From an uncultured Alphaproteobacteria bacterium (GTDB lineage: Bacteria; Pseudomonadota; Alphaproteobacteria; Rs-D84), in the NCBI GenBank assembly GCA_964017835.1, contig CAXHMP010000002.1, positions 275 to 64,274 of the forward strand: DNA of 64,000 nt. Direction: 5' to 3'. The position numbers and the translations under genes were made by a program. Below, one piece after another: positions 3,417 to 38,167 of this stretch. Below the pieces are notes generated by a model. That model was not told the DNA's origin and did not search any database. It worked only from the letters and a program-made list of their open reading frames with translations. The stretch's first letter is position 1. Each line of letters opens with the position of its first letter.

Positions 3417-3746
3417 CTGCAACTGATTAGGGCGGTGGGCCAGGGCGCGTGGCCCCGCCGTCTTGTCTAAATGAATAATGTCGCCAAATTGGGTGTCCGT
3501 GAAAAATAATATATTCACGTCGCCTGTACATGGGTTGTTTCTTTTTACGGCATGTATGTATTTTTGTGAATTTTCGCGGGTGCCAGTAAATCGCATGTAC
3601 ACTGAATACTGCGCCATCGAGAAGCCTATGTCCTGTAAAAAGTTTCGAAAGCGCGATGCCTCGCGGCGTTCGTGTTTGGTGTCTGTCGGTAAATCAAACA
3701 TAACCATCATCCACATGTATTTTAGCCCATCAGTCTTGAATGACAT
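3408..3746 (-). CDS. cas2: Cas2 (112 aa)
   Basis: Cas2-like N-terminus MWMMVMFDLPTDTKHERREASRFRNFLQDIGFSMAQYSVYMRF (beta1 with Asp, then helix). ATG at 3744-3746. Overlaps the cas1 3' end by 17 nt and the cas9 3' end by 9 nt (convergent). Confidence 0.85.
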   Translation of the reverse strand: MSFKTDGLKYMWMMVMFDLPTDTKHERREASRFRNFLQDIGFSMAQYSVYMRFTGTRENSQKYIHAVKRNNPCTGDVNILFFTDTQFGDIIHLDKTAGPRALAHRPNQLQLF

Positions 3747-4626
3747 TTTCGTAGTCCAGTTTGTTTTTCTTTTCTTTTAGAGAATTTACAAAGTTCCACA
3801 CGTCGCGTTGCATTATAGTTATAAGCGGTGATGTGCCGGCACGTGTTTTAATGTTTGATTCCAGTATTCCTGCCAGGCGTTTTTTGTCATCAGGCATCAG
3901 TTCACGTGCCGGGTTATCAACACCGCTGAAAATATCATACACAATGGCGTCAACTATCGGTCTGTATGGTTCCATCAGGTCGTCCACCAGGCACATTGGG
4001 TTCAACTGATTATGGTGTTGTATCCCGTATGACGGGTTAAGGCCTGCGCCTACTACAAGGCGCGCCATTGCGCCACGAATAACGGCGTAACCGTAATTTA
4101 AAAAACTGTTTATGCCCCGATGATGGTGAATCCGCAGAAAATTTGCGCCAAACAGGGCCGGAAAATACATTCTGGCTGCGATGCCCTCTGTGTTTCCTGT
4201 GTCGCCGGATTGTACGCTTGGTACCAGATTTTTTATTTTGTTATCTATTTCGTATTTGTCCAAGACCCTGGATTGATTGCGTATTTTTTCTTGGACTATG
4301 CTTTTCCACAACTGCTTTTCAAGAGGACGAGAAGTATTCACTTGGGCCTGTTGAACGACCATTTGTCTGGTATGGCCAACCAATGGAGTTAAGATTCCGA
4401 CGGGAGTATAATTTTCGTTAATGACGATAAGCGGTATCCCGTTTTCGCAGAGTGCGCTTAGCAATTTTTTTGTAAATGTAATTGCCTGGCCTGTCGCCAA
4501 AAGTGCGCAAATTGAATCAAATGGAATTTCTGCGATGGTTTCTGAGTGTTCTTTTATGCACAAAAATCCCCGCCTTGCGGAAAGTTCTTTGTTGTTACTT
4601 GAAATTTCGATAATACTCGTTTGCAT
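3730..4626 (-). CDS. cas1: Cas1 integrase, type II-like
   Basis: Cas1-like conserved blocks TEGIAARMYFPALFG, NSFLNYGYAVIRGAMARLVVGAGLNPSYGIQHHN and DDLMEPYRPIVD. I chose ATG 4626. The ORF track extends to a TTG at 4644. Confidence 0.9.
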   Translation of the reverse strand: MQTSIIEISSNNKELSARRGFLCIKEHSETIAEIPFDSICALLATGQAITFTKKLLSALCENGIPLIVINENYTPVGILTPLVGHTRQMVVQQAQVNTSRPLEKQLWKSIVQEKIRNQSRVLDKYEIDNKIKNLVPSVQSGDTGNTEGIAARMYFPALFGANFLRIHHHRGINSFLNYGYAVIRGAMARLVVGAGLNPSYGIQHHNQLNPMCLVDDLMEPYRPIVDAIVYDIFSGVDNPARELMPDDKKRLAGILESNIKTRAGTSPLITIMQRDVWNFVNSLKEKKNKLDYENVIQD

Positions 4627-4632
4627 ACGTTT

Positions 4633-4660
4633 TATATAGTACAATAAATCTGTTTGTCAA
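4633..4660 (-). promoter_or_regulatory. Putative sigma70 promoter of cas1-cas2 (TTGACA-16 nt-TATATA)
   Basis: On the - strand, TTGACA (4660-4655), a 16-nt spacer, then TATATA (4638-4633). The -10 ends 6 nt before the cas1 ATG (4626) and there is no Shine-Dalgarno, so the mRNA may be leaderless. Confidence 0.45.
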
Positions 4661-4745
4661 ATTATTTTTGGTTTAGGAAATAAAAATTGTAAAAAACGAA
4701 TCGAATTTGGTGTTGGATTGCGTAATTTTATTTTTGGCATATATT

Positions 4746-21805: not shown

Positions 21806-21834
21806 GATAGAATACGCGCAACGCCCCGCGGCGC

Positions 21835-21884
21835 GTGAACAAGTTTTGGATGGGTGGCAGAGTGGTTGATTGCACCGGTCTTGA
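21835..21884 (+). repeat. Duplicated 5' half of tRNA-Ser plus 13 nt of its upstream flank (49/50 identical to 21996-22045)
   Basis: GTGAACAAGTTTTGGATGGGTGGCAGAG(T/C)GGTTGATTGCACCGGTCTTGA occurs twice with a 161-bp period. The first copy stops within the anticodon (..CTTGA) and has no variable or T arm after it. Confidence 0.85.
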
Positions 21885-22008
21885 CTACGAAGTCCGCAAG
21901 AACAAGTGTCAACGCCGTTCGCGCGGTTACGAGTGGTAAGCAGCGTACCGTCAGGTACGTCAGCGAACAAAACCGTCGGTTTGAAAGACCGGTGGGTGAA
22001 CAAGTTTT

Positions 22009-22098
22009 GGATGGGTGGCAGAGCGGTTGATTGCACCGGTCTTGAAAACCGGCGAGGATGCAAGTCCTCCGGGGGTTCGAATCCCCCCCCATCCGCCA
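22009..22098 (+). tRNA. tRNA-Ser (anticodon UGA), CCA encoded
   Basis: Acceptor GGATGGG/CCCATCC. Anticodon arm CCGGT-CTTGAAA-ACCGG. Long variable arm GAGGATGCAAGTCCTC. T arm GGGGG-TTCGAAT-CCCCC. Discriminator G + CCA. Closely parallels E. coli tRNA-Ser(UGA). Confidence 0.92.
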
Positions 22099-22140
22099 GG
22101 AATCAATTATGTTTTGAATATAAAAACATACATCGTTCAA

Positions 22141-22168
22141 AGCCCCGGGAAATCGGGGCTTTTAATTT
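22141..22168 (+). terminator. Intrinsic terminator after tRNA-Ser
   Basis: AGCCCCG-GGAAAT-CGGGGCT followed by TTTTAATTT. Confidence 0.65.
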
Positions 22169-22265
22169 ATAACTCATCCACGGTATAGCGCAAAATTCCA
22201 AAAATCGGCAAATAAAAACCAGTTTCTATACAATGGCCTTTTTCGCCCTGGCAGTGGTTTGGGGA

Positions 22266-23864
22266 TTATATTTGATGCTGTGGCGCGATGGCAAAGATTT
22301 CTTCCATGCTGTACACCTCTTTGCCGGATAAAATATTGTTCACTTTCTCTGGGTGCATGTATGCCAGATTCAGATAGCGATACAGACTGCGCCACGATGT
22401 CTGTTCGGATTTTACAACGTACTCCAAATCGCCGTGCTTTTCATACGCCATGCGATAACGCCATGCAGTTGCAAACGCCCGCACAATCATATTGTGATTG
22501 TCGGTCCGCGTCATCAGGCCCGCGCGTCCTGCGCTGTACTTATTACTGCCCGTCCATTTATTCAGAACCACCGGTCGCGCCAGAATTAAATCATCGCCAT
22601 TACGCATAAAGTCTATTTTGTTATTTTGAGTGTTGATAAAATCAGGTCGTATAAACGGTCGCAGGCTATTCGCATCTGTATTGATGAAAAACGTTATTCG
22701 CCCTGGTGCATAAATTGCGCGCTGGATTAGTGTTTGAACCAGGCGCCGCCGCGCCATGTAATCCAGGCCACCATAATCAATTTGTTTTAATGTATGTGAC
22801 AAAGTATCGGGCAGGGTGCATAAATCCGAATTCAGGAATTCAACAATCGTATCGGTTGCCAATTTATCAACATCCTGCGCGGGTAAATATTCGCCCGCCC
22901 CGGCATAGTAATAAAGTGTCGGTCGCCGTGCACGCACGGTGCTTTGATTGGTAAACCGCGTGCCGTCCGCATTATATAACCGCCCGGATAATAAATTGGG
23001 CGATCCATTTGTTCGACCCGATTTGTGATTTGCATTGTTCTCTAATTCCGCCTGAACGGCATCAAATAATTCCTGGGTTATGATGGGGGCGTGTTCGCCG
23101 CGGGCAATTGTTCCGGTAACCTTACATTCAACATAGCCCAGATATATTTTACTGCGCAGCATTCTGTGTAACGCCATTTTCTTGATTGGATTCCCACCGA
23201 TAACGCGTCCGCCATGGGTGGTCCATTTCTTGGCATAAATCCCAATGGTCGGCAAATGCCGGGTCAAATCCTGAACCGATTTCATCTGCAGATATAATTC
23301 AAATATGGTTTGAATCTGTGCGGCCTCGGTCATGTTGATAACCAACTTTTTATCGATAATGTCGTACCCCAACGGCGGGCATCCGCCAATCCACATTCCT
23401 TTGGCTTTACTGGCACGCAGTTTGTCGCGCACGCGTTCGCTTGACACTTCACGTTCAAACTGGGCAAATGACAGCAGCATAGTCAGCGTTAATTTGCCCA
23501 TCGATGTACTGGTATCAAATGACTGGGTGATGGATACAAAGTTCGCATTATGTTTATCAAAATACCGCATCATATTATGGAAATCCAAGATTGACCGCGA
23601 CAATCTATCAACCTTGTACACGACAACGGTATTAACCAATCCACGCGCCATATCGTCTAGCATGTGTTTTAACGCCGGCCGTTCCATCGTGCCACCCGAT
23701 ATACCGCCATCGGCATAAGTCTTGTAATATTCCCAATCGTTAAAGGCTTGTGATGCGATGTATGCCCGACATGCCTGTTCTTGATTGTCCAGGCTGTTAA
23801 ACTCTTGTTCCAACCCGTGTTCGGTGGATTTACGAACATATACGGCGCATTTAATCTTTGGCAT
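22266..23864 (-). CDS. Large serine recombinase (532 aa)
   Basis: N-terminal resolvase domain AVYVRKSTEHGLEQEFNSLDNQ..VVVYKVDRLSRS (catalytic Ser in the RKST context). A recombinase domain and a long C-terminal extension typical of phage/ICE serine integrases. Confidence 0.9.
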   Translation of the reverse strand: MPKIKCAVYVRKSTEHGLEQEFNSLDNQEQACRAYIASQAFNDWEYYKTYADGGISGGTMERPALKHMLDDMARGLVNTVVVYKVDRLSRSILDFHNMMRYFDKHNANFVSITQSFDTSTSMGKLTLTMLLSFAQFEREVSSERVRDKLRASKAKGMWIGGCPPLGYDIIDKKLVINMTEAAQIQTIFELYLQMKSVQDLTRHLPTIGIYAKKWTTHGGRVIGGNPIKKMALHRMLRSKIYLGYVECKVTGTIARGEHAPIITQELFDAVQAELENNANHKSGRTNGSPNLLSGRLYNADGTRFTNQSTVRARRPTLYYYAGAGEYLPAQDVDKLATDTIVEFLNSDLCTLPDTLSHTLKQIDYGGLDYMARRRLVQTLIQRAIYAPGRITFFINTDANSLRPFIRPDFINTQNNKIDFMRNGDDLILARPVVLNKWTGSNKYSAGRAGLMTRTDNHNMIVRAFATAWRYRMAYEKHGDLEYVVKSEQTSWRSLYRYLNLAYMHPEKVNNILSGKEVYSMEEIFAIAPQHQI

Positions 23865-24297
23865 GATTCAACCTTTTGTTGGTTAGTCCAAAGAAGTCAT
23901 TTCCGGACACTTTGTGGCCGCATATTTCTTTGGCGATGGCGGACATGGTGCGGTACGTTTTGTTGTTGTATATGAATTCGTCCCGGTCGCCAACGGTCAC
24001 TTTGAATTCCAGTCCGCGGAATGTTTTGGTAATGGTGGTGCCCGGGTTCAGATGGTATTTGCTTTTATGTACGCGGCTCAGGCATTCATCAGGATTATTC
24101 ATATATTTGCGTAGCATTGTGATGTGTTTTGCGGCAATGGTGGCGTGCGCGCGTTCGCATTGGATATAGTACCATAATGCCCGCGCTTGGCGCCGATATG
24201 GATACGGACTATATCGCGCCCACAACAGGGCTTTTTGTTCAAAGTCCATCTTTTCCAGTTCGGATTTGCTTTCGGGCAACATAAAGAAGGCTTTCAT
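23851..24297 (-). CDS. DUF2924-like protein (148 aa), usual partner of large serine recombinases
   Basis: C-terminal block GTTITKTFRGLEFKVTVGDRDEFIYNNKTYRTMSAIAKEICGHKVSGNDFFGL. Overlaps the recombinase start by 14 nt. Confidence 0.7.
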   Translation of the reverse strand: MKAFFMLPESKSELEKMDFEQKALLWARYSPYPYRRQARALWYYIQCERAHATIAAKHITMLRKYMNNPDECLSRVHKSKYHLNPGTTITKTFRGLEFKVTVGDRDEFIYNNKTYRTMSAIAKEICGHKVSGNDFFGLTNKRLNHAKD

Positions 24298-24476
24298 TTA
24301 TTATCCTTTGATTTCACGTCGTTTCGCAGTTGTGCGGTGGCCTTGGTCAGAATAACTTGTAATGCCCGCACCAGGTACAAAACATCAGAATCCGGGATGT
24401 TCGCCGGCCGTCCCAATGGATTGCCCGACACCCCGGGCTTAAACCGCATTTTCTTTGGTGGATTTTTATAAGCCAT
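24294..24476 (-). CDS. Small DUF5681-like protein (60 aa)
   Basis: N-terminal motif FKPGVSGNPLGRP. 4-nt overlap with the DUF2924-like gene. A second N-terminal copy of the same motif lies at 34471-34560. Confidence 0.5.
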   Translation of the reverse strand: MAYKNPPKKMRFKPGVSGNPLGRPANIPDSDVLYLVRALQVILTKATAQLRNDVKSKDNK

Positions 24477-24518
24477 GTCATTTCACTCCTATGGTCGTGC
24501 AATGAATGCTTACAAACC

Positions 24519-24598
24519 GAGTCGAGTCAAGTGGAATAAACTAACATCTTGTGTTATTAGGAATTTATAGTATACTCAGTATCGAGTCTTACGGAGTC
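24519..24598 (+). promoter_or_regulatory. Cluster of four GAGTC (GANTC-class) motifs upstream of the helicase-nuclease gene
   Basis: GAGTC at 24519, 24524, 24584 and 24594, all in the same orientation, mostly as CGAGTC. The last is 5 nt before ATG 24603. A TATAGT -10-like hexamer lies at 24567-24572. Confidence 0.35.
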
Positions 24599-24602
24599 GA
24601 AT

Positions 24603-27600
24603 ATGGTTTCTTATATAAATAGTAAAGATGACAGAAAGAATACTGTTGTTTATTCGGGTTCTTCGGATAAAAAGTATTCAGAAATAAAATTTAACAAAAA
24701 GTTTCTTGAAGCTATTTATAAGAAATTGACAGGATTGGCAGGGCGTACGCCAATCCATCTTATGGCTGTCCCAGGCAGAATGAAAAATCGCCTTGATTTA
24801 TGTGATTTGTCCATTGCAAATGTTGAGCCTGATTTGGATTTGTTTTCCGGAAAGAATGCGCCTAAAACAGATGGGTATGCTAAGAGATTCTTGGAAACGT
24901 TATTAACAAAAGACAAATTTGATTTTAAATTTTCATGGGAAGATAAGAAAATTACTAGCATGGATTCGGAAGCAAAAGATGCCCTGACGATTGTTGGGAA
25001 ACGCTTAAATTCAATGCTTATTGATAACGAAGATGTATTCATTGATACCGGATTAAAAAACTTTGGTTTTGGATATCCTTTACTGGTACTACCAGATCCG
25101 AAGGACAAGGATAAGGCTGTAATAGCCCCGATTTTTATTTGGTCTTTGGATATTTGTCATTCAAATAGAAAAAATGAGTGGATTATATCGAAAACAGAAG
25201 ATAGTCCAATCAAGATGAACGAGATTTTGGTTTCGTACATTGAAAACACTATGAAATTAAAATTGCTTCGACTGGAAGCAGAAGATTTGGATGATGGAAT
25301 TTTGCAAGCAGATGAAATGCAAAAATATCTAAAAGATTTAGTAAAAAAGCTGAATATCCAACACGATGATTTAAATTTGAGACTTGAACCTGTTGGTACA
25401 AAAGAGCGTCTCGTAAAGTTGTGTTCTGAGAATGGTTTTATACAATGGTCAGGTGTTTTTGGCTTGTATAGGTCTCAAAAGGAAACAATTATAGAATCTG
25501 TTTTAGAGCTTGAAAATAATATAGACAATTTTAACGAACAGCAGTTGGAGTTAAAGCCATTTTCGACATCTTCAGAAGCTTCTTTTGAAACAGATCCTAG
25601 TCAGTCTGAAATAATACGAACGCTGAATGATAATGAATTTAAGATAATTCAAGGACCTCCCGGAACAGGAAAAAGTCAGGCGATTTCAGCGATAATTTCC
25701 AATGCTCTTGCGAACAAAGCAAAGACTTTGGTTGTGTGTGAAAAGAAAACAGCTTTGGAAGTTTTAAAACGTAATTTAGAAGAAAAGGGCTTAGATACAT
25801 TCTGTATAGTCGTTGATGACGTAAATAAGGATCGTAAAGCTGTTGTTAATAAGGCGAGAGGATTACAAGAATATAACCCGAATAAAGCTTTTAATGCGAC
25901 TGCATTTGAAAGGGATCAGCAGGAGTTTTTAACACTTAAAGCAAAAATTAATGAATGTTATAGTAATTCTAGTGAGAAGGTATTGGGGAATTATACCTGG
26001 ACAGATGTAATAGGGCTGTATTTAAAATATTCAAAATTGCCAACATTTGATAAGGTGAAGGAAGAATTAAAAGAGTTCGCTGAGTCTAAATTCGATTTTG
26101 ATATGCAAGAATTTGTAGAATTATGCAGTTTGGTAAAGGTTGGACACGAGCGTTACTCTATATGCAAGCACATAGACCCAAAAGCTTTTGAATTATTAGA
26201 TATTAATGCTCTAAAAGATGTTTCGATTTCATATAATATAGAAACACAGGATAATATTTCCTTGGTTCGTAAGCGCATTAACGATGTATCTGCATTTTTG
26301 AAAAACAATTATTGTGAGCTAGGTACGGCAACAATAAATACGACAGAAAAAGCATTAAATGATTATATAAAAGTTTTTGAGTCGTATGTGGAGCAAATTG
26401 AAAAAGCTAAAAACTTAGAAAATTTGAATGCTGATTATAAAACTAAAGTACATTTTTTCCAAACTGTTAACGATTTGGATATAGAGTTTTCTAAAACAGC
26501 AAATAGTCTTAATATCCCGTATGATAAATTGGATTTTGTTATTCCAGAAGTAGAAAAATCTATAAAAGATACGGAAAAATTATATAAAACAACAGAAGGA
26601 TTTGTAGCAGCTGCACAAAAACTTCATGGTATTGAAATAAATTTACAATCAGATAGTGCTTCTGTTAAAGAATTTGTTGGTATAATGAAAGAATTAAGTT
26701 GTTCAATAAATAACACAACAAAAAAACTTGCTGGCGATTACGTTCCTCTGAATTTTGATGATAAAATCGAAGAAAAATTGGAACATTTGTCCATCGTCAT
26801 GGCAAATACGCAATCAATAAAAGAAAATTTTAATTCTGGTAAGGAAGTCTTTGGCAAAGAATTTTCGGAATATAAATGTGGGCTATTTGCGCGCTTGTTG
26901 TCCAAAAAGGCTGCGGAAGCATTTCAATATTATAAAAATATAGAATTAAAATATAAAGAAATAGGAAAAACATTAAAAAGTTTTGCCAAATCATATAATA
27001 ATGCTATTGATTCCGAATGTGTCTTTAATGATGAAGTTGATACGCCTGGGGAAATGATTAAAATAGTGGAGAATGTTTCCGAAAAAGCAAGCACAATACA
27101 AAGCAGACTGTATGCTGAATTGGCCTCAATTCTGGTGGATATTGATAAGTGTGTAAGTGGTTTGCAAGAGGAAATCCGTGCAAGTAATGCCGAGACGAAT
27201 GAATTGATAAACAGTATTTGCGAAAAAATCTCAGTTTATCAGGAATCCTGTCGTGTTAATATTAAAACATTGAAAGTAATACTGCAATGTCAATCGCGTA
27301 TTGCGGATACGGATGAATTATTGCTGTCAAAGTTTCCAGGGCTTAAGAGCAAAGATCTAAAATATGATACCGTAGAACATTACATTGAACGGCTAAAATC
27401 TATACTTGAAAAAATAGATGTTCTTGAAAATCAACTTGAAGATTTAGAGCAGTATATGGCATGGATGGACGTCTTTAAGCCAAGTAAAAAGCTGTTTGAG
27501 GTTCTGATGTTGGAAGAAGATGATTATTTATGGGAAGATTTGTTTAAAGGGGCATATTACTACTATTTCTTGTTGAATTATGCGAACAAAAATAAGAAAC

Positions 27601-29216
27601 GCTTTTTGACGTCAACGAAAGAAAATTACTTGCAAATATTGCGTGACTTGTTCTTAAAGTTGCAAAATAATAATACAAAAAAGATATTTAATATCTGGCA
27701 TGATATAAGAGAAAATGCAATATATAATCTGGATTCTGCATTCGGTTTTAAGGCTTTGTTCGCTCTTAAACGTGGCAAATATGCAAAAAAGTTGTCTTTA
27801 CGACAGATCATAGAAAGAGATTTTGATTCATTTACGGATTTGTTTCCGGTTGTGATGGTAAACCCTATCGTTGCGAATGCATTATTGCCGTTACAGCAAG
27901 GTTTATTTAATTTAGTTATTTTTGATGAAGCAAGTCAGCTTAGAATTGAAGATGTTTATACGTCCATGATTCGCGGGCAATATAAAATCATTGCCGGAGA
28001 CAAACATCAGATGCCACCATCAAATTGGTTCGCTAAAAATGCAGATAATAGCAATTTAGATGACGAAGAAGATGATGATCTGACGTTAGCTTCCACGGAT
28101 GTTGAATCGCTGTTGGAGTATGCAGAGCATTTTAAAAATGCAAAACAATTTGCATCTCATCTGGATTTCCATTACCGCAGTAAACATCCAGCGTTGATTG
28201 AGTTTTCTAACTGTGCATTCTATGGTTCAAATTTATGTCCATTGCCAAATAGATTGGCAGAAACAACGCCGTTTGAATATCATTATATTGCAGGCGCGTA
28301 TGTTGATAGAATGAATAAAGACGAAGCTTTCAAAGTTGTGGAAATTATACGCAATTTGCCGAGAGACAGTAGAGGGAATTTGCCGTCTGTAGGAATTGCA
28401 ACGTTTAATGTACAGCAGAGAAACCTCATAAAGAATCTGATGCATGAGATTGAAATAGAAGATGAAAATTTTGCAAAAATCTGTGCAGAATTGAATCAAA
28501 ACAAAGATCCTTTGTTTGTGAAAAATTTAGAAAATATTCAAGGAGATGAGCGAGATATTATAATCATATCCACTACTTATGGACCTGGAGCAGATAATAA
28601 ATTCCGTGAGCAGTTTGTTATCAACCGACAAGAAGGTTATAGATTACTAAACGTTCTTATAACTCGTGCTAAGCAAAGATTAATTGTTTTGACTTCTATA
28701 CCAGAAAGTAAATTTTTGGATTATAAAACCAGATTAGACGAGGCGCAGGAAAATAATAAGACAGGAATATTTTACGCTTATTTAGCATACGTGAGAGCGC
28801 ATGCCAATCATGAATTTGATGTTGCCAAAGCTGTTTTGAAAGATATATCTAAATATTCATACGAAGAGCCGAGACGCGATTTAGATGAGGTCGCCTATGG
28901 ATTGACAGAATCGCCTTTTGAAGAGGAGGTTTATGAAGAATTGGTTTCATTATTACCTAAGGAAGCAATTCAGCCTCAATATAAGGTTGGTGGTTACCGG
29001 TTAGACTTTTTGTTGACTGTCGGAGACAAAAGAATTGCGCTTGAATGTGATGGCAAGGCTTATCATCAGTCAGAGGAAGCGTTTGTTGAGGATATGCAAC
29101 GACAGAAAATTCTTGAAGGATATGGATATATATTTTATCGGATATGGTCGACAAGCTGGTTTACCAACAAAGAAAAAGAGGTATTAAAGCTGAAACGGTT
29201 CTTAGAGCAATTATAG
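24603..29216 (+). CDS. Giant SF1 (Upf1/DNA2-like) helicase fused to C-terminal Vsr/DUF559-type PD-(D/E)xK nuclease (1537 aa)
   Basis: Walker A GPPGTGKS (aa 351-358, nt 25653-25676). Motif II FDEASQ (aa 1107-1112, DEASQ at nt 27924-27938). GDKHQMPP. GDERDIIIISTTYG. LLNVLITRAKQRLIVL. C-terminus GYRLDFLLTVGDKRIALECDGKAYHQ..YIFYRIWSTSW. Confidence 0.85.
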   Translation: MVSYINSKDDRKNTVVYSGSSDKKYSEIKFNKKFLEAIYKKLTGLAGRTPIHLMAVPGRMKNRLDLCDLSIANVEPDLDLFSGKNAPKTDGYAKRFLETLLTKDKFDFKFSWEDKKITSMDSEAKDALTIVGKRLNSMLIDNEDVFIDTGLKNFGFGYPLLVLPDPKDKDKAVIAPIFIWSLDICHSNRKNEWIISKTEDSPIKMNEILVSYIENTMKLKLLRLEAEDLDDGILQADEMQKYLKDLVKKLNIQHDDLNLRLEPVGTKERLVKLCSENGFIQWSGVFGLYRSQKETIIESVLELENNIDNFNEQQLELKPFSTSSEASFETDPSQSEIIRTLNDNEFKIIQGPPGTGKSQAISAIISNALANKAKTLVVCEKKTALEVLKRNLEEKGLDTFCIVVDDVNKDRKAVVNKARGLQEYNPNKAFNATAFERDQQEFLTLKAKINECYSNSSEKVLGNYTWTDVIGLYLKYSKLPTFDKVKEELKEFAESKFDFDMQEFVELCSLVKVGHERYSICKHIDPKAFELLDINALKDVSISYNIETQDNISLVRKRINDVSAFLKNNYCELGTATINTTEKALNDYIKVFESYVEQIEKAKNLENLNADYKTKVHFFQTVNDLDIEFSKTANSLNIPYDKLDFVIPEVEKSIKDTEKLYKTTEGFVAAAQKLHGIEINLQSDSASVKEFVGIMKELSCSINNTTKKLAGDYVPLNFDDKIEEKLEHLSIVMANTQSIKENFNSGKEVFGKEFSEYKCGLFARLLSKKAAEAFQYYKNIELKYKEIGKTLKSFAKSYNNAIDSECVFNDEVDTPGEMIKIVENVSEKASTIQSRLYAELASILVDIDKCVSGLQEEIRASNAETNELINSICEKISVYQESCRVNIKTLKVILQCQSRIADTDELLLSKFPGLKSKDLKYDTVEHYIERLKSILEKIDVLENQLEDLEQYMAWMDVFKPSKKLFEVLMLEEDDYLWEDLFKGAYYYYFLLNYANKNKKRFLTSTKENYLQILRDLFLKLQNNNTKKIFNIWHDIRENAIYNLDSAFGFKALFALKRGKYAKKLSLRQIIERDFDSFTDLFPVVMVNPIVANALLPLQQGLFNLVIFDEASQLRIEDVYTSMIRGQYKIIAGDKHQMPPSNWFAKNADNSNLDDEEDDDLTLASTDVESLLEYAEHFKNAKQFASHLDFHYRSKHPALIEFSNCAFYGSNLCPLPNRLAETTPFEYHYIAGAYVDRMNKDEAFKVVEIIRNLPRDSRGNLPSVGIATFNVQQRNLIKNLMHEIEIEDENFAKICAELNQNKDPLFVKNLENIQGDERDIIIISTTYGPGADNKFREQFVINRQEGYRLLNVLITRAKQRLIVLTSIPESKFLDYKTRLDEAQENNKTGIFYAYLAYVRAHANHEFDVAKAVLKDISKYSYEEPRRDLDEVAYGLTESPFEEEVYEELVSLLPKEAIQPQYKVGGYRLDFLLTVGDKRIALECDGKAYHQSEEAFVEDMQRQKILEGYGYIFYRIWSTSWFTNKEKEVLKLKRFLEQL

Positions 29217-29271
29217 TATCTATTGCTACGGATAATACCATCAAGTCCTTTATGGCTTGTTCAAATCGATA

Positions 29272-29300
29272 TTGCAAGATGGTTTGTTTTTTAGTAGAAT
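29272..29300 (+). promoter_or_regulatory. Putative promoter TTGCAA-17 nt-TAGAAT immediately upstream of the endonuclease ATG
   Basis: TTGCAA at 29272-29277 and TAGAAT at 29295-29300. ATG 29307 lies 6 nt after the -10 and there is no Shine-Dalgarno, so the mRNA may be leaderless. Confidence 0.35.
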
Positions 29301-29306
29301 ATTCAT

Positions 29307-30692
29307 ATGTTTACCAAGGAATATGATAAAACGAACGTTGAATCCATACTGCGGCATGCCAAACAGCTGCAGGGGTATACGTTGCGTGAATATTTAGATG
29401 GGGTTCAGCTGCCTACAACGCGTGAAACGCGTGCAGGTAATAGAGGACAGCTTGGTAATGAAATAGAAAAATATTTTTTTGGCTATGAACCAAATAGTAA
29501 TTCGGAACCAGATTTCCCAGATGTAGGACTTGAATTAAAGGTTACCCCACTTAAACGTTTGGCAAAAGGCGCTTTGACGACCAAGGAACGTTTGGTTTTA
29601 TCGCAAATAAATTTTCATGATATTGTATCCGAAACATGGGATGATAATAGTTTATTAAAAAAGTTGCGTTTTCTTTTGTTGATGTTTTATGTCGCAGAAA
29701 AAGATGTCGCCTCGTTAGATTTGTTGTTTGAGTTGGTAAGTACATGGTCACCATCCGATAAGGATATGCAAATCATCCGTCAAGATTGGGAAACAATTGT
29801 TGCCAAAGTCCGGGCCGGAAATGCGCACGAGTTATCAGAAGGTGACACAATGTATTTGGGCGCATGCCCAAAGGCGGCAGATTCTACGGTTCGACGTTCG
29901 CAACCAAATAGTAATATTCCGGCAAAGCCACGTGCATTTGCGTTAAAAAGTTCTTATATGCGTGCCATATGGAATGAATTGAATGGTTCGCGTACAGAAG
30001 CTTTGTCTGACTCAGCAAATGTGTATGATTTTGTTATAAATAAGTTTAAACCATTATATGGAAAAAGCATTGCTGATATTGCTCGCATTCTTGATATTGA
30101 TGCTGCCCCGATGCGTCGTTCTAAAGATTTTATAAGTCGTTTTATGAAACAAGTTCAGGTTAAACTATTTTCCAAAAGACTGTCAGAATTTTCGGAGTTT
30201 GAAAAATCTGGTATTCAGGTGAAAAATATTTTGTTGTTGCCGAATGGAATTCCAAAGGAAAGTATGTCTTTTCCTTATATAAATTATAAAGAAATTGTTT
30301 TGCAGGAAGATTGGGAAACGTCCGACATAAAATCGTTGTTTGAAAATGAAAAGCATCTGTGGCTGGTTTTTAAGGCTACAAAGCCGTATTCGTGTCAACG
30401 TGATTTGAATCTGAATGAAATAATTTTTGAAAAGGCTATGTTTTGGAATATGCCTGCTGCTGACCTGGATGGTGCGATGCAAGATTTATGGCGTGATACT
30501 GTTGCAAAAATTCGTGCGGGGGATTATGGGCATTTTATAAAAATGTCTGAAAATCCAGTAGCTCACATTAGGCCAAAGGCTCAAAACTCAAACGATTTAA
30601 TGGAAACGCCCCAAGGAACGCGCGAAAAGAAAAAGTGTTTCTTTCTTAATCGCGCATACGTAGGTAATCAGATAAGAAAAATGGTAGCTTAG
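29307..30692 (+). CDS. Type II restriction endonuclease, Sau3AI/MutH-like (461 aa)
   Basis: MutH/Sau3AI catalytic region EPDFPDVGLELKVTPLKRL...KERLVLSQINF (D..ExK). Size and two-domain length are similar to R.Sau3AI. Paired with a C5 methyltransferase. Confidence 0.75.
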   Translation: MFTKEYDKTNVESILRHAKQLQGYTLREYLDGVQLPTTRETRAGNRGQLGNEIEKYFFGYEPNSNSEPDFPDVGLELKVTPLKRLAKGALTTKERLVLSQINFHDIVSETWDDNSLLKKLRFLLLMFYVAEKDVASLDLLFELVSTWSPSDKDMQIIRQDWETIVAKVRAGNAHELSEGDTMYLGACPKAADSTVRRSQPNSNIPAKPRAFALKSSYMRAIWNELNGSRTEALSDSANVYDFVINKFKPLYGKSIADIARILDIDAAPMRRSKDFISRFMKQVQVKLFSKRLSEFSEFEKSGIQVKNILLLPNGIPKESMSFPYINYKEIVLQEDWETSDIKSLFENEKHLWLVFKATKPYSCQRDLNLNEIIFEKAMFWNMPAADLDGAMQDLWRDTVAKIRAGDYGHFIKMSENPVAHIRPKAQNSNDLMETPQGTREKKKCFFLNRAYVGNQIRKMVA

Positions 30693-31900
30693 TCTTCTTG
30701 ATTTACTATTTCCGTTATTCCTGTGGCAATTACTTGTATTAAATCAACAACCAATGCATTGCCCATACAGAAATATCGGAACTTTTCAGGCATTCCGGTG
30801 TTTGTCCAATTGTCTGGGAAGCCATCAATGCGTTCGCATTCAACAGGGGTGAGTTTCCTTAAATTTCCGGTCGCTTTGTCTTTTACTATATGGGTTGTTC
30901 GGCTGTTTGAACCTTCACTAGTTAGGATTGTTCGGGCTGCCCGGTTGGTCAAATCTGGAAAGGGGATTGGACCTTCTGTATAAAAATATTTGTATCCTGT
31001 TGATGACGTCCGTTCTTCTTTTTTTGCACCTTTCATATATACAAATTTTTTATACAATTCTGGGGATAGAAAAAATCTGTCTTCTGCCTCTATTTCCATA
31101 ATATCATCAAGTGTTTTTCTTGCTGACGGTAGGGTGTTGATTGGTTTAGTTTTTATGGTTTCTATTTGGCTGTCAATCATTATGCCTGTATTTTCAAAGA
31201 TGAATGCAAAGTTGGTAGATATTGATAATAAGTCTGTTGGAAGTGCTGTGGTCTTCATAAGCAGTTCATTAAAAGGCATAATCGGTAAAACGCGAGCAAA
31301 TAGAGTGTCCGTTTGCAGGTTGTGTGTGTGTCTTAACTTTTGAGCATATTTTGTGCTTTTATGAGCGGCAAATATAAATGTTCTGCGTCTGCGTTGTTGG
31401 AATCCGTACTCTTCGGCATTTACCACGCGCCATTCTACATAATACCCCATATTATTCAGGCAGGCTAAAATTATTGCAAAATCACGTCCACGCTGTTTGG
31501 CGGGGGATTTTATTAATCTGTCAACATTTTCCAACAATACAAATGGTGGACGTTTAGCTCTTAAAATACGGTCTATATCCCACCATAAAACCCCTTTTTT
31601 TCCTTCTATCCCCTTGGACTGTGTGCCGGCAACAGAGTAATCTTGGCACGGGAATCCGCCAACCAGGATTGTGTGGTCGACAATAGATTCAGCAGGAACA
31701 GAATGGATGTCTGTATTGGAAAACTTGTTAATCCCGCCTTGTGATTCAAAATGTGTTTTATAACACGTGTATGCATGCTGATTCTTGGCGCCCGGTTCCC
31801 ATTGGTTTGCCCATACTGTTTTCCACGTCTTGTCCGCGGCTTCAAACCCTAGTCTGAATCCCCCAACGCCAGCAAATAATTCTACAATTGTCTTTTTCAT
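30689..31900 (-). CDS. DNA (cytosine-5)-methyltransferase (403 aa from ATG 31900)
   Basis: Motif I ELFAGVGGFRLGFE, motif IV GGFPCQDYSVAG, motif VI ENV (LLENVDRL), motif VIII QRRRRTFIF, and a C-terminal GNALVV. Convergent with the endonuclease gene, with 4-nt overlap of the 3' ends. Confidence 0.92.
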   Translation of the reverse strand: MKKTIVELFAGVGGFRLGFEAADKTWKTVWANQWEPGAKNQHAYTCYKTHFESQGGINKFSNTDIHSVPAESIVDHTILVGGFPCQDYSVAGTQSKGIEGKKGVLWWDIDRILRAKRPPFVLLENVDRLIKSPAKQRGRDFAIILACLNNMGYYVEWRVVNAEEYGFQQRRRRTFIFAAHKSTKYAQKLRHTHNLQTDTLFARVLPIMPFNELLMKTTALPTDLLSISTNFAFIFENTGIMIDSQIETIKTKPINTLPSARKTLDDIMEIEAEDRFFLSPELYKKFVYMKGAKKEERTSSTGYKYFYTEGPIPFPDLTNRAARTILTSEGSNSRTTHIVKDKATGNLRKLTPVECERIDGFPDNWTNTGMPEKFRYFCMGNALVVDLIQVIATGITEIVNQED

Positions 31901-32229
31901 ATGTCTTCCAAACGCCTGTAATATACAATAAAAAAGACAAAGGATCAAGTAAAAAATTACACTGTTATTTAGCGAAATAAGGATTTAATCAGTTGATTTA
32001 AGTGATTCTTTATGCAAAACTGGCAATGAATCCAATGGGAATTGGGTTCGGGGCTGTGGTGGCCCACAAGTGCGGTGATATGTCGTTATAATACCCCGAC
32101 TTTGGTCGGGGAGCAGTTTGTTATGCAATAGGGTTTTCCCAAAGGAAATGGAACATTCACTTATTGACACCAACTCCCCGACCGTCAAATTCCTGTTTGG
32201 CGGTCAAATCTATTTAAAAGGGGAATTTT

Positions 32230-36085: not shown

Positions 36086-37567
36086 ATGAGAACGCTGAAT
36101 TTGATTTCTTTTGCTGAAAGTTTGGCATCTGATGTTTCAGATGCAGCCTGTAGGTATTTGGAAGTTTTGCCGAAAGATACAGAAAAAGAAATTATACAAA
36201 TTCTGGCTAAAAGATTTATCGAAAAAGGACTTCCAGTCGGATCGTTTAATGGTTTTTATTTTGGCTATAATATACCTCAAATTGGAAAAGAATTCGATTT
36301 TTTGAGAATGGGTTCAAACTACATTGTAAATTTAGAAATAAAGAGTGAGTCGACCGAAGATAAAGTAAAAAAACAATTGGTTCAAAATAAATTTTATTTA
36401 TCTCTTCTTAAGAAACCATTGAAACTTTATACATACATATTGAATGTGGATAAATTTTATAGTTTAAATGAAGATAACGGCCTTTCGGAGATTGATTTTG
36501 GACAAGTCGTTACAAGTATTTTGGAACAAACAGATTTATATACAGATAATTTAGATACTTTATTTGGTGCTTTTAATTATCTTGTTTCGCCATTTAATGC
36601 CACGGATGAATTTATAAATGGATATTATTTCTTAACTCCGCAACAAGACAATATTATACGCGATCTCGATAGCATTTTTTGCAATTCTACTGGAAATATT
36701 GTGGCCATAGAAGGTGCGGCAGGAACAGGCAAATCGTTGCTATTATATGATTACGCCAAAAGAATAATGGAGAGTAATGATCGGGCTTTAATAGTTCATG
36801 TCGCGCAATTAAACCCCGGACATGATAAATTAATGAGAAATTATGGATTTTCTATTTCTAACATAAAAACGTTTATGGAAAATATAAATAATTCAGTTCT
36901 TAATAATTTTGATGTCATACTTATAGATGAGGCACAAAGGCTATTCACAAGCCAACTAGAACAAATTATAGAATATGTAAAAACGCATAACATAAACTGT
37001 ATTTTGTGTTATGATGAAAAACAAAAACTGTCAGATGGTGAATTTAGAAGTGAATCCGTTAGTCTAATTAGACAAAACTCCCGTCCGAATTATACATTAG
37101 GAAAGAAAATAAGAACGAACCATAAACTTGCATCTTTTATAAATAAGATGTTTGACTTAACGAGTGAATTTGATGGGAATTGCGCAGAAGTTTCTCTTAC
37201 TTATTTTAAAAACTTTAGAAGTGCATATCAATATTTAGAGACAAATGTAGATTATAGTTTTGTCCGGTATACACCATCAAGGTATTATCCAAATCCGCAA
37301 ATAAACCTATTAAGTGGTTTAAAATCGTGCGTTGGTGCCGCTCATGAAGTTATTGGGCAAGAATTTGATAATGTATCTGTAATGATAGGAAGAACGTTTT
37401 ATTATTCCGATAATGGAAAACTCTGCTCAAATACTGTTGAAAGGAATCCTTACAATTTCTTAGGTATGTTATATCAAGCTGTTACCCGTGCTAAGAAGAA
37501 ATTAGAAATCATTGTGGTTAACAATCCATCTGTGTATAAAGAGCTGGTTGCAATCATTAGAGGCTAA
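36086..37567 (+). CDS. P-loop NTPase/helicase-like protein (DUF2075-like) with N-terminal NERD/PD-(D/E)xK-like domain (493 aa)
   Basis: N-terminus GKEFDFLRMGSNYIVNLEIKSE (D..ExK). Walker A GAAGTGKS (aa 210-217, nt 36713-36736). Walker B VILIDEAQRL. C-terminus GQEFDNVSVMIG and AVTRAKKKLEIIV (UvrD_C-like). Confidence 0.75.
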   Translation: MRTLNLISFAESLASDVSDAACRYLEVLPKDTEKEIIQILAKRFIEKGLPVGSFNGFYFGYNIPQIGKEFDFLRMGSNYIVNLEIKSESTEDKVKKQLVQNKFYLSLLKKPLKLYTYILNVDKFYSLNEDNGLSEIDFGQVVTSILEQTDLYTDNLDTLFGAFNYLVSPFNATDEFINGYYFLTPQQDNIIRDLDSIFCNSTGNIVAIEGAAGTGKSLLLYDYAKRIMESNDRALIVHVAQLNPGHDKLMRNYGFSISNIKTFMENINNSVLNNFDVILIDEAQRLFTSQLEQIIEYVKTHNINCILCYDEKQKLSDGEFRSESVSLIRQNSRPNYTLGKKIRTNHKLASFINKMFDLTSEFDGNCAEVSLTYFKNFRSAYQYLETNVDYSFVRYTPSRYYPNPQINLLSGLKSCVGAAHEVIGQEFDNVSVMIGRTFYYSDNGKLCSNTVERNPYNFLGMLYQAVTRAKKKLEIIVVNNPSVYKELVAIIRG

Positions 37568-37582
37568 AAGCAATATCAGTAG

Positions 37583-38008
37583 CTATAAATGCACGATGTC
37601 GATGTCGGGGAATTGTTCGGCGATGTATTCGGCCGCCAGGCGGCGGTGGCATTGTAGAGCGGATTTTTCGGTACATAACAGGCAAATTCGGTCAAGGTCA
37701 GCCGGGGTGAGGCCCACGGTCGGGCGGCGTGCGGCCAATAATTCACGGTACATTCGTTCATAATCAGGCCAGGTTATGCGACCATCTTTATATCCGGCCA
37801 GGATTTCCACCGTTGGGGCGAATTCTGGGTGATATTCATATCGCGGTCCCAATGCCACCGCCAGGTTTTCGCCGCTATAAAATGGCACGTATGTGCAGGC
37901 GCGCCATTGGCGTATGTCCCAGACTCTGCGTACACGCACTGCATTTAACACGTCCATAAACGCGTCTGGGGTCTTGCTGCTAAAGCCAATTGTAAATATT
38001 TTCGTCAT
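37583..38008 (-). CDS. DUF488 family protein (141 aa from ATG 38008)
   Basis: MTKIFTIGFSSKTPDAFMDVLNAVRVRRVWDIRQ is a typical DUF488 N-terminus. The C-terminus has CTEKSALQCHRRLAAEY. The ORF track extends to 38053. Confidence 0.7.
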   Translation of the reverse strand: MTKIFTIGFSSKTPDAFMDVLNAVRVRRVWDIRQWRACTYVPFYSGENLAVALGPRYEYHPEFAPTVEILAGYKDGRITWPDYERMYRELLAARRPTVGLTPADLDRICLLCTEKSALQCHRRLAAEYIAEQFPDIDIVHL

Positions 38009-38167
38009 ATTATTGTAATTATGACGGGAAGTGCGCGCATAATCAACCATCAATCGCGATTAGTTCTTTTACCCGGATTTAAGCATTTTTTTTGTTTTTG
38101 TATCGTCCACGGTAATGAACGGCGATATTGAACGGGCGATATAAATGAATAAAATAATAAAAAAATG

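Follow-up and report, generated by a model that had tools for sequence, protein, structure and literature searches.

A short-form relative of the Hhe and Prometheus ProA helicase-nucleases in the cargo of an alphaproteobacterial genomic island

The closest described relatives of the gene considered here are two single-gene anti-phage systems, Hhe and Prometheus. Hhe, for which a preprint (bioRxiv 10.1101/2022.06.16.496414) cites Gao et al. 2020 as the source, is active against lambda, T3, T7 and PhiV-1 and no longer defends once a point mutation is placed in its nuclease (same preprint); its helicase is classed as Upf1-like, of superfamily 1 (SF1), and that of Nhi as UvrD-like (bioRxiv 10.1101/2024.02.29.582594). 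Prometheus, attributed to van den Berg et al. 2024 (Cell Host Microbe 32:1427) in PMC13700489, is described there as a validated single-protein system, ProA, with four domains and a characteristic insertion, all of its domains being essential; the same text mentions 'possible variants' in Lokiarchaeales that lack DUF3320 or DUF4011, whereas another preprint (bioRxiv 10.1101/2022.12.12.520048) makes no mention of Prometheus. The MTES_1575 nuclease has been defined as a Vsr-fold restriction endonuclease (REase) that is joined to an SF-I helicase (PMC3710099). Here we analyse P0001, a gene in a 64,000-nucleotide (nt) stretch, referred to as the window, from an uncultured alphaproteobacterium of the Rs-D84 lineage (GenBank assembly GCA_964017835.1, contig CAXHMP010000002.1, positions 275 to 64,274, forward strand). 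Its deduced product of 1537 amino acids (aa) is, judged by profile matches, a short-form relative of Hhe, ProA and the PADLOC candidate PDC-S37.

P0001 is a single polypeptide composed of three parts: its SF1B helicase, of the Upf1-like kind, is preceded by a DUF4011-like N-terminus and followed by a C-terminal Vsr-fold (MTES_1575/DUF559) nuclease. A first-pass annotation of the window had reported the open reading frame and most of its motifs, and all of the positions given there were exact. The motor motifs comprise Walker A (GPPGTGKS, aa 351–358, with K357), motif Ia (LVVCEKKTAL, 376–385), motif II (FDEASQ, 1107–1112, with D1108 and E1109), motif III (GDKHQMPP, 1132–1139), GDERDIIIIS (1314–1323) and VLITRAKQRL (1351–1360); motifs III, V and VI, like Walker A and motif II, are intact. 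Pfam assigned AAA_11 to aa 332–406 and AAA_12 to aa 1177–1364. When the predicted motor was compared with the PDB by Foldseek, Upf1, IGHMBP2, Sen1/SETX and Dna2 ranked at the top (E ~1e-8, probability 1.00; entries 2xzo, 4b3g, 8rd3, 5eaw and 5mzn), which agrees with the Upf1/DNA2-class helicase proposed earlier. The C-terminal nuclease, likewise proposed, matched the MTES_1575 REase family (PF18741; aa 1439–1533, E 1.7e-24, 86 bits against a cut-off of 38) and DUF559 (aa 1457–1532, E 4.7e-5), and weakly matched 3HRL, a structure of DUF559. Its signature consists of YRLDFLL (1465–1471), IALECDG (1478–1484), AYH (1486) and IWSTSW (1514–1519), of which the ECDG..YH motif lines up with its counterpart in ProA, and the alignments mark D1468, E1481, D1483, H1488, R1500 and W1515 as conserved. 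The catalytic residues of the motor and nuclease are invariant over 90 aligned homologues, and in P0001 the Vsr-fold nuclease has its key residues (D1468, E1481, D1483 and H1488) intact. Conservation is also high in the first part of RecA1 (aa 331–420), where 25 relatives were aligned and the 19 more distant ones show 85–86% identity.

The profile searches place this protein within a known family. PDC-S37 (PDLC05009) of PADLOC matched P0001 with an E value of 1e-130 (435.8 bits), the best stretch covering profile positions 401–1340 of 1550, whereas Hhe of the same collection matched the C-terminal third only (E 5e-77), MkoA and MkoC matched the helicase core alone (E 1e-20 to 1e-22), and the Nhi model gave no match to P0001. 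Among the NCBIfam models, antiphage_ProA (NF058533) yielded E 3e-135 and 452.7 bits against a cut-off of 1500 (query 164–1536, profile 489–1705 of 1903), and Hhe (NF042953) yielded E 4e-98 and 329.5 bits against a cut-off of 2000, in three partial stretches. As a control we used a ProA encoded on an IncF plasmid (P0122, 1963 aa), which with 2223.8 bits exceeded the NCBIfam threshold of 1500 and matched PDC-S37 end to end (1180.8 bits, profile 9–1531 of 1550). PDC-S37, of which we found no mention in the literature, is therefore, by this profile comparison, a Prometheus-type family. Against the same profile, P0001 and four short relatives scored 435–464 bits and stopped at about position 1340, and Pfam detected no DUF3320 (PF11784) in P0001, the chain of which stops 4 residues past the nuclease domain. 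By these matches P0001 is a short form that has diverged and lacks the DUF3320 tail.

P0001 and ProA are both single polypeptides carried on mobile DNA, and they share the order of their parts: a DUF4011 region, which is a sub-threshold match in P0001, an Upf1-like SF1B helicase with a RecA1 domain split by an insertion of 600–750 aa, and the MTES_1575 nuclease. In BLASTP alignments they are 33% identical over aa 1048–1537 of P0001 and 36% identical over aa 290–402, the inserted segment remaining unaligned; the C-terminal ~250 residues of ProA, with DUF3320 at 1820–1868, have no counterpart in P0001. Hhe, of about 1800 aa, is likewise a single-gene combination of DUF4011, Upf1-like helicase and Vsr endonuclease, but aligns to P0001 in the C-terminal half of the helicase and the nuclease only (profile 1231–1683 of 1797). 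As Hhe and ProA carry the same order of parts, the architecture, which had been thought to differ from known systems in the type and position of the nuclease, is the known one. Nhi and Mokosh, taken as models in the first-pass annotation, share with P0001 the logic of a helicase plus a nuclease but are more distant: Nhi has a UvrD-like helicase, unlike the Upf1-like one of P0001, and Mokosh, although the Upf1-like core is common to MkoA, MkoC and P0001, has different effector domains. A Druantia preprint was rejected as a comparandum, as it describes an unrelated helicase-nuclease. Among cellular enzymes, Upf1, IGHMBP2, Sen1/SETX and Dna2 have the RecA1-RecA2 core and the motifs in common with P0001, with accessory subdomains within RecA1; to our knowledge none of them carries a Vsr-fold nuclease, and Dna2 has a nuclease of another type at its N-terminus.

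The same domain set and length class as in P0001 are found in the DUF3320-less Lokiarchaeales 'Prometheus variants' and in more than 7600 uncharacterized homologues of 1200–1540 aa, which are spread over the candidate phyla radiation (CPR), Bacteroidota and gut Alphaproteobacteria; one archaeal variant of this kind, P0036, from a Promethearchaeota metagenome-assembled genome (MAG), is 48% identical to P0001 over the core. By domain content and length, this short class is the actual subfamily of P0001. What is new is thus one more well-delimited member of the short DUF3320-less branch, and to this abundant class the example adds the limits of a cassette, from putative promoter to stop, and an identified swap partner. 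It also indicates that the short class circulates as a plug-in cassette in gut Alphaproteobacteria with genomes of about 1 Mb.

We consider it probable that P0001 is a stand-alone, single-polypeptide helicase-nuclease acting against phages or other invading DNA, a shortened form within the Hhe/Prometheus (ProA, PDC-S37) superfamily; the single-gene defence suggested in the first-pass annotation thus gains from homology to Hhe and ProA, neither of which had been named there. By analogy with these relatives, anti-phage activity would be expected to depend on the nuclease site. P0001 would load on a nucleic-acid structure made by the invader: the candidates are single-stranded 5' tails, intermediates of replication or recombination, and R-loops, as has been suggested for Prometheus. 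SF1B helicases translocate 5'->3', and ATP-driven movement in this direction would be followed by nicking or cutting by the tethered Vsr-fold nuclease. The fast-evolving inserted segment, and perhaps the DUF4011 domain too, may gate the motor or nuclease or recognize the trigger, which would account for the hypervariability of this segment. P0001 would require no partner gene.

Several points weigh against this proposal. The substrate, the polarity and the role of the insertion are drawn by analogy from relatives and from the fold only, and the literature reports no short-form member as having been tested for anti-phage activity. The scores of P0001 lie far under the NCBIfam equivalog cut-offs for both ProA and Hhe. 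The first ~370 residues of ProA, preceding DUF4011, are missing, and so is the DUF3320 tail, although all four ProA domains are reported to be essential (PMC13700489). DUF4011 itself is sub-threshold in P0001 (aa 130–211, E 0.037, 14.4 bits against 22.2). In addition, all isolates of Pseudomonas aeruginosa possess a DUF4011 gene, which flanks a defence hotspot there as a core gene (PMC10250203), so that some relatives behave in a core-like manner.

In homologues of P0001, DUF4011 reached 26.1 bits in P0010, which is 42% identical, and 22.1 bits in P0004 (cut-off 22.2); the DUF4011 region of P0001 lies about 140 aa from Walker A, the same distance as in ProA. Of the domains expected in the first-pass annotation, AAA_11, AAA_12 and DUF559 were thus found, DUF4011 fell below threshold and DUF3320 was absent. 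AlphaFold2 (AF2) predicts a sheet at aa 154–205 between helices, with a predicted local distance difference test (pLDDT) score of 80–90. The earlier remark that the first ~340 aa show no catalytic motif fits the invariant residues, among which Gly, Pro, Trp and Phe predominate, although the domain may have a catalytic role given the near-invariant D144, E148, D165, K171 and D183. An equivalence of DUF4011 with the Upf1 stalk and 1B barrel is putative, since Foldseek gave no meaningful structural match for the N-terminal domain.

Walker A and motif II of P0001 are separated by a K/L/E/N-rich gap of 756 aa that had been described as largely coiled-coil. Two AF2 models built from 90-sequence alignments, one of residues 340–1537 (pLDDT 86, predicted TM score 0.63) and one of residues 1–1160 (pLDDT 82, predicted TM score 0.53), both predict aa ~432–1052 to be a wholly alpha-helical arm (pLDDT about 85) of sixteen helices, one of them of 96 residues (815–910), which fits that description insofar as the arm is long and helical. 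The length of the insertion, which had been implied to be unusual, is not: among the best 120 of the more than 7600 relatives, the 116 that have both motifs show gaps of 431–784 aa (median 573, modes near 470, 572 and 645), and the gap in the bona fide ProA P0122 is 630 aa. The long insertion is, in these alignments, a family-wide trait rather than a peculiarity of P0001. The lineage of P0001–P0006 is at the long end of this range (745–756 aa between the motifs), with extra helices at aa 631–705 and 841–870 that are missing from the 645 class.

The arm is also the least conserved part of the protein, with 0–30% identity per 30-residue bin against 60–87% in the motor core. When used alone as a query, it retrieved 6 proteins among 1.84 billion representatives and could not be traced beyond the family in that search, compared with more than 7600 retrieved by the whole protein, and Foldseek returned weak, generic coiled-coil matches to SMC, Rad50 and chemoreceptors (TM score ≤ 0.14). 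In Upf1 and Sen1 a small 1C 'prong' subdomain sits between motifs Ia and II, and in Upf1-type enzymes this insertion is tens of residues long, against ~625 in P0001; the arm would occupy the topological position of this prong. The combination of a conserved motor and nuclease with a hypervariable arm offers a concrete candidate domain for trigger recognition. A bolder version, in which the short form without DUF3320 is a functionally distinct system, the arm is a specificity sensor replacing the winged-helix tail of ProA, and the lineage-specific helix insertions at aa 631–705 and 841–870 retune recognition, seems doubtful to us.

The distribution of P0001 is that of an accessory gene. The source genome (955 kb in 56 contigs) is about 90% complete. 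In 60 related genomes, 36 of them of the same genus and most of them more than 90% complete, we found one full-length homologue (47% identity, in another family of the order), one remnant of 90 residues, and nothing in the other 58. The remnant (G028:C12:58124-58393, locus L092) is 76% identical to aa 1300–1389 of P0001 within an open frame of 108 aa, and is apparently a decayed piece of a related gene. The neighbouring lgt gene, by contrast, is present in 37 of 40 genomes. The G+C content of the P0001 gene is 33.8%, compared with 39.8% for the stretch from 22.1 to 40 kb and ~51% in both flanks. From composition and distribution, then, the gene is to be regarded as horizontally acquired and accessory. 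Its closest named homologues are from MAGs of animal-gut Alphaproteobacteria, followed by those of Bacteroidota and CPR; a scan of contigs with the single protein as query gave no close relative, whereas an alignment-based scan succeeded. Relatives also occur on 501 plasmid records, IncF plasmids among them.

The gene appears to be a self-contained cassette in a slot for defence cargo, because homology stops at its stop codon, no neighbour recurs, and its own -10 and GGAG signals recur. A 92% nt-identical copy on a contig from another sample (L098) spans window positions 24502–29215, and its homology ends exactly at the stop codon, downstream of which it has a Ymh/Abi-type gene. Six further homologues lie, respectively, beside HsdR-N-like and HigAB-like genes; Mrr, EcoRI-type methylases, GmrSD and HicAB; a serine recombinase, VirB4, a C5 methylase and PLD; a tyrosine integrase and an AAA_25 replication-type gene; a type III restriction-modification (R-M) system, HipAB and GmrSD; and, in Flammeovirga p1, plasmid replication and partition genes. 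All seven contexts are thus defence or mobile-element neighbourhoods, with no recurring neighbour. The putative expression signals (Table 1) suggest that the gene has its own promoter and ribosome site; a consensus promoter scan made no call upstream of it, the -35 being weak, but the arrangement TTAGGAAT..TATA(A/C)T..CGGAG is also found upstream of 57–59%-identical homologues in unrelated contexts.

The region just upstream of the gene also holds four same-strand GAGTC (GANTC) motifs at window positions 24519–24598, within 80 bp before the ATG; across the window this pentamer is rarer than expected (18 occurrences, 34 expected). The 92% copy retains the cluster, but 12 more distant homologues lack it upstream, and it was rejected as a family-wide operator. 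A 373-aa N6/N4 methyltransferase encoded on contig C23 of the source genome is a candidate that may be CcrM-like.

Comparison with sister islands defines where the cargo begins. The junction lies between a leftward recombinase operon and the P0001 gene, where the 18-mer GCAATGAATGCTTACAAA precedes ..GAGTCAAGT.. In the closest congener (G029), the same tRNA-Ser site is occupied and window positions 22005–24516 are matched with 90.5% nt identity, but past the junction G029 carries a type I R-M system (HsdM, HsdS and HsdR), and its 18-mer occurs twice, as a direct repeat around the 8.7-kb type I R-M block (L094, 7504–7542 and 16221–16238). Of 61 genomes from the genus, 5 contain the 18-mer, in each case at this junction, the further sites being G032:C22:10345, G033:C34:49292 and G084:C4:31766; two of these three species could be read past the junction, and both have type I R-M there. 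The slot of P0001 is therefore filled by type I R-M in all three comparable islands, with two different families across the set. Homology to the sister islands stops about 65 bp upstream of the P0001 ATG, which bears out the earlier placement of P0001 as the first cargo gene past the recombination module. The junction sequence (GCAATGAATGCTTACAAA...GAGTCAAGTG) may be a defined cargo-exchange site of these islands; alternatively, the recombinase operon may have its divergent promoter region at the 18-mer.

These data bear on three other explanations. Cooperation with the adjacent R-M pair, a Sau3AI/MutH-like endonuclease and a C5 methyltransferase, had been suggested earlier; in such a multi-gene system P0001 could, for instance, process GATC cuts or be licensed by methylation status. 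The genes are indeed adjacent, with 91 bp from the P0001 stop codon to the R gene, and together form one 7.4-kb indel relative to G029 (window ~24538–31985). However, the 92% copy is followed by a Ymh/Abi-like gene instead, its homology ending at base 29215 in the stop codon, none of the seven homologue neighbourhoods contains a Sau3AI/MutH-like gene, the R gene has a promoter-like site of its own (29272–29300), and Hhe and ProA work as single genes; we therefore regard such a partnership as very improbable. An enzyme of host housekeeping, repairing DNA or resolving R-loops like DNA2 or senataxin, would agree with the fold, which resembles Dna2, SETX and IGHMBP2, and with the DUF4011 gene conserved in all P. 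aeruginosa isolates (PMC10250203). The absence of a homologue from 58 of 60 mostly near-complete genomes, the foreign base composition and the contrast with lgt argue that P0001 is no ubiquitous core gene, and its place inside a recombinase-bounded island and the decayed remnant in a congener point the same way, which makes a housekeeping role hardly credible.

A role that mainly serves the mobile island, through competition with other elements, plasmid exclusion, or addiction and maintenance, is less easily set apart. Members of the family are always on integrative elements, plasmids or islands, as shown by the 501 plasmid records, IncF included, and by homologues beside serine or tyrosine recombinases or, in Flammeovirga p1, replication and partition genes. 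The relatives that have been tested were nevertheless scored as anti-phage, and the same slot is filled by classical R-M in the sister islands. As anti-plasmid and anti-phage roles are compatible, this explanation overlaps with that of an anti-invader helicase-nuclease; as the main function of P0001 it seems unlikely.

Table 1. Features of P0001 and of the surrounding island (window coordinates)
Feature	Position	Strand	Basis or remark
Helicase-nuclease gene P0001	24603-29216	+	1537 codons; sole long open frame there
N-terminal alpha/beta domain, DUF4011-like	24675..25592 (aa ~25-330)	+	Pfam, AF2, spacing to Walker A
RecA1 first part, Walker A and motif Ia	25593..25862 (aa 331-420)	+	Pfam, motifs
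All-alpha arm between motifs Ia and II	25863..27737 (aa 421-1045)	+	AF2 models, low conservation
Lineage-specific extra arm pieces	26493-26717 (aa 631-705); 27123-27212 (aa 841-870)	+	Alignment
Rest of RecA1 and RecA2 (FDEASQ, GDKHQMPP, QGDERD, TRAK)	27738..28727 (aa 1046-1375)	+	Pfam, motifs, Foldseek
C-terminal Vsr-fold endonuclease, MTES_1575/DUF559	28917..29201 (aa 1439-1533)	+	Pfam, invariant columns
Putative expression signals	24571..24596	+	-10-like TATACT 24571-24576; GGAG Shine-Dalgarno 24593-24596, 6 nt before ATG
Backbone end / cargo junction	24499..24537	.	18-mer GCAATGAATGCTTACAAA then CCGAGTCGAGTCAAGTG
tRNA-Ser(UGA)	22009-22098		First of the island features from the left
Large serine recombinase	22266-23864	-	Leftward operon
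DUF2924 gene	23851-24297	-	Leftward operon
60-codon ORF with KPGVSGNPLGRP motif (MAYKNPPKKMRFKPGVSGNPLGRP...)	24294-24476	-	Leftward operon
Nhi/AbiO homologue, full length	36086-37567	+	PADLOC E 1e-139 and 1e-143
DUF488 gene	37583-38053	-	PDC-M45C match 8e-30; convergent with Nhi/AbiO

The island that carries P0001 is about 18 kb long, is located at a tRNA-Ser gene, encodes a serine recombinase and makes up about 2% of the ~1-Mb genome. The 60-codon open reading frame (ORF) of the recombinase operon has a GGAGTG ribosome site and a stop overlapping the DUF2924 ATG, is conserved in G029, and is probably the first gene of the operon. The P0001 gene is followed by the MutH/Sau3AI-family endonuclease and the C5 methyltransferase, which are convergent, and rightward of this pair by a three-gene block that includes an ADP-ribosylglycohydrolase and then a ParB-methylase. 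Further to the right come the Nhi/AbiO homologue, a gene separate from P0001, and the DUF488 gene. Synteny did not settle where the island ends on the right, as the right-hand epimerase gene is variable in the genus and unlinked to lgt. In a third congener (L095, G003:C2:214000-233999), a more distant serine recombinase module (3472–4727; 57–69% aa identity) occupies the same lgt/tRNA-Ser site with different cargo; on the evidence of these genomes, elements of the genus integrate recurrently at the lgt/tRNA-Ser site, which is a hotspot.

Two repeated elements were also observed. A 56-nt direct repeat (21829–21884 and 21990–22045, 95% identity) comprises the 5' half of tRNA-Ser(UGA) and its upstream flank, the duplicate copy sitting 161 bp upstream of the intact tRNA-Ser(UGA). 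A conserved non-coding leader at 32027–32226 on the plus strand, 5' of the UDG-like/ARH operon, recurs on the minus strand of another metagenomic contig (L097, 4919–5152) with a 29-nt exact core, where it precedes a gene for a DksA/TraR-zinc-finger protein that is divergent from P0003, a 66%-identical helicase-nuclease homologue.

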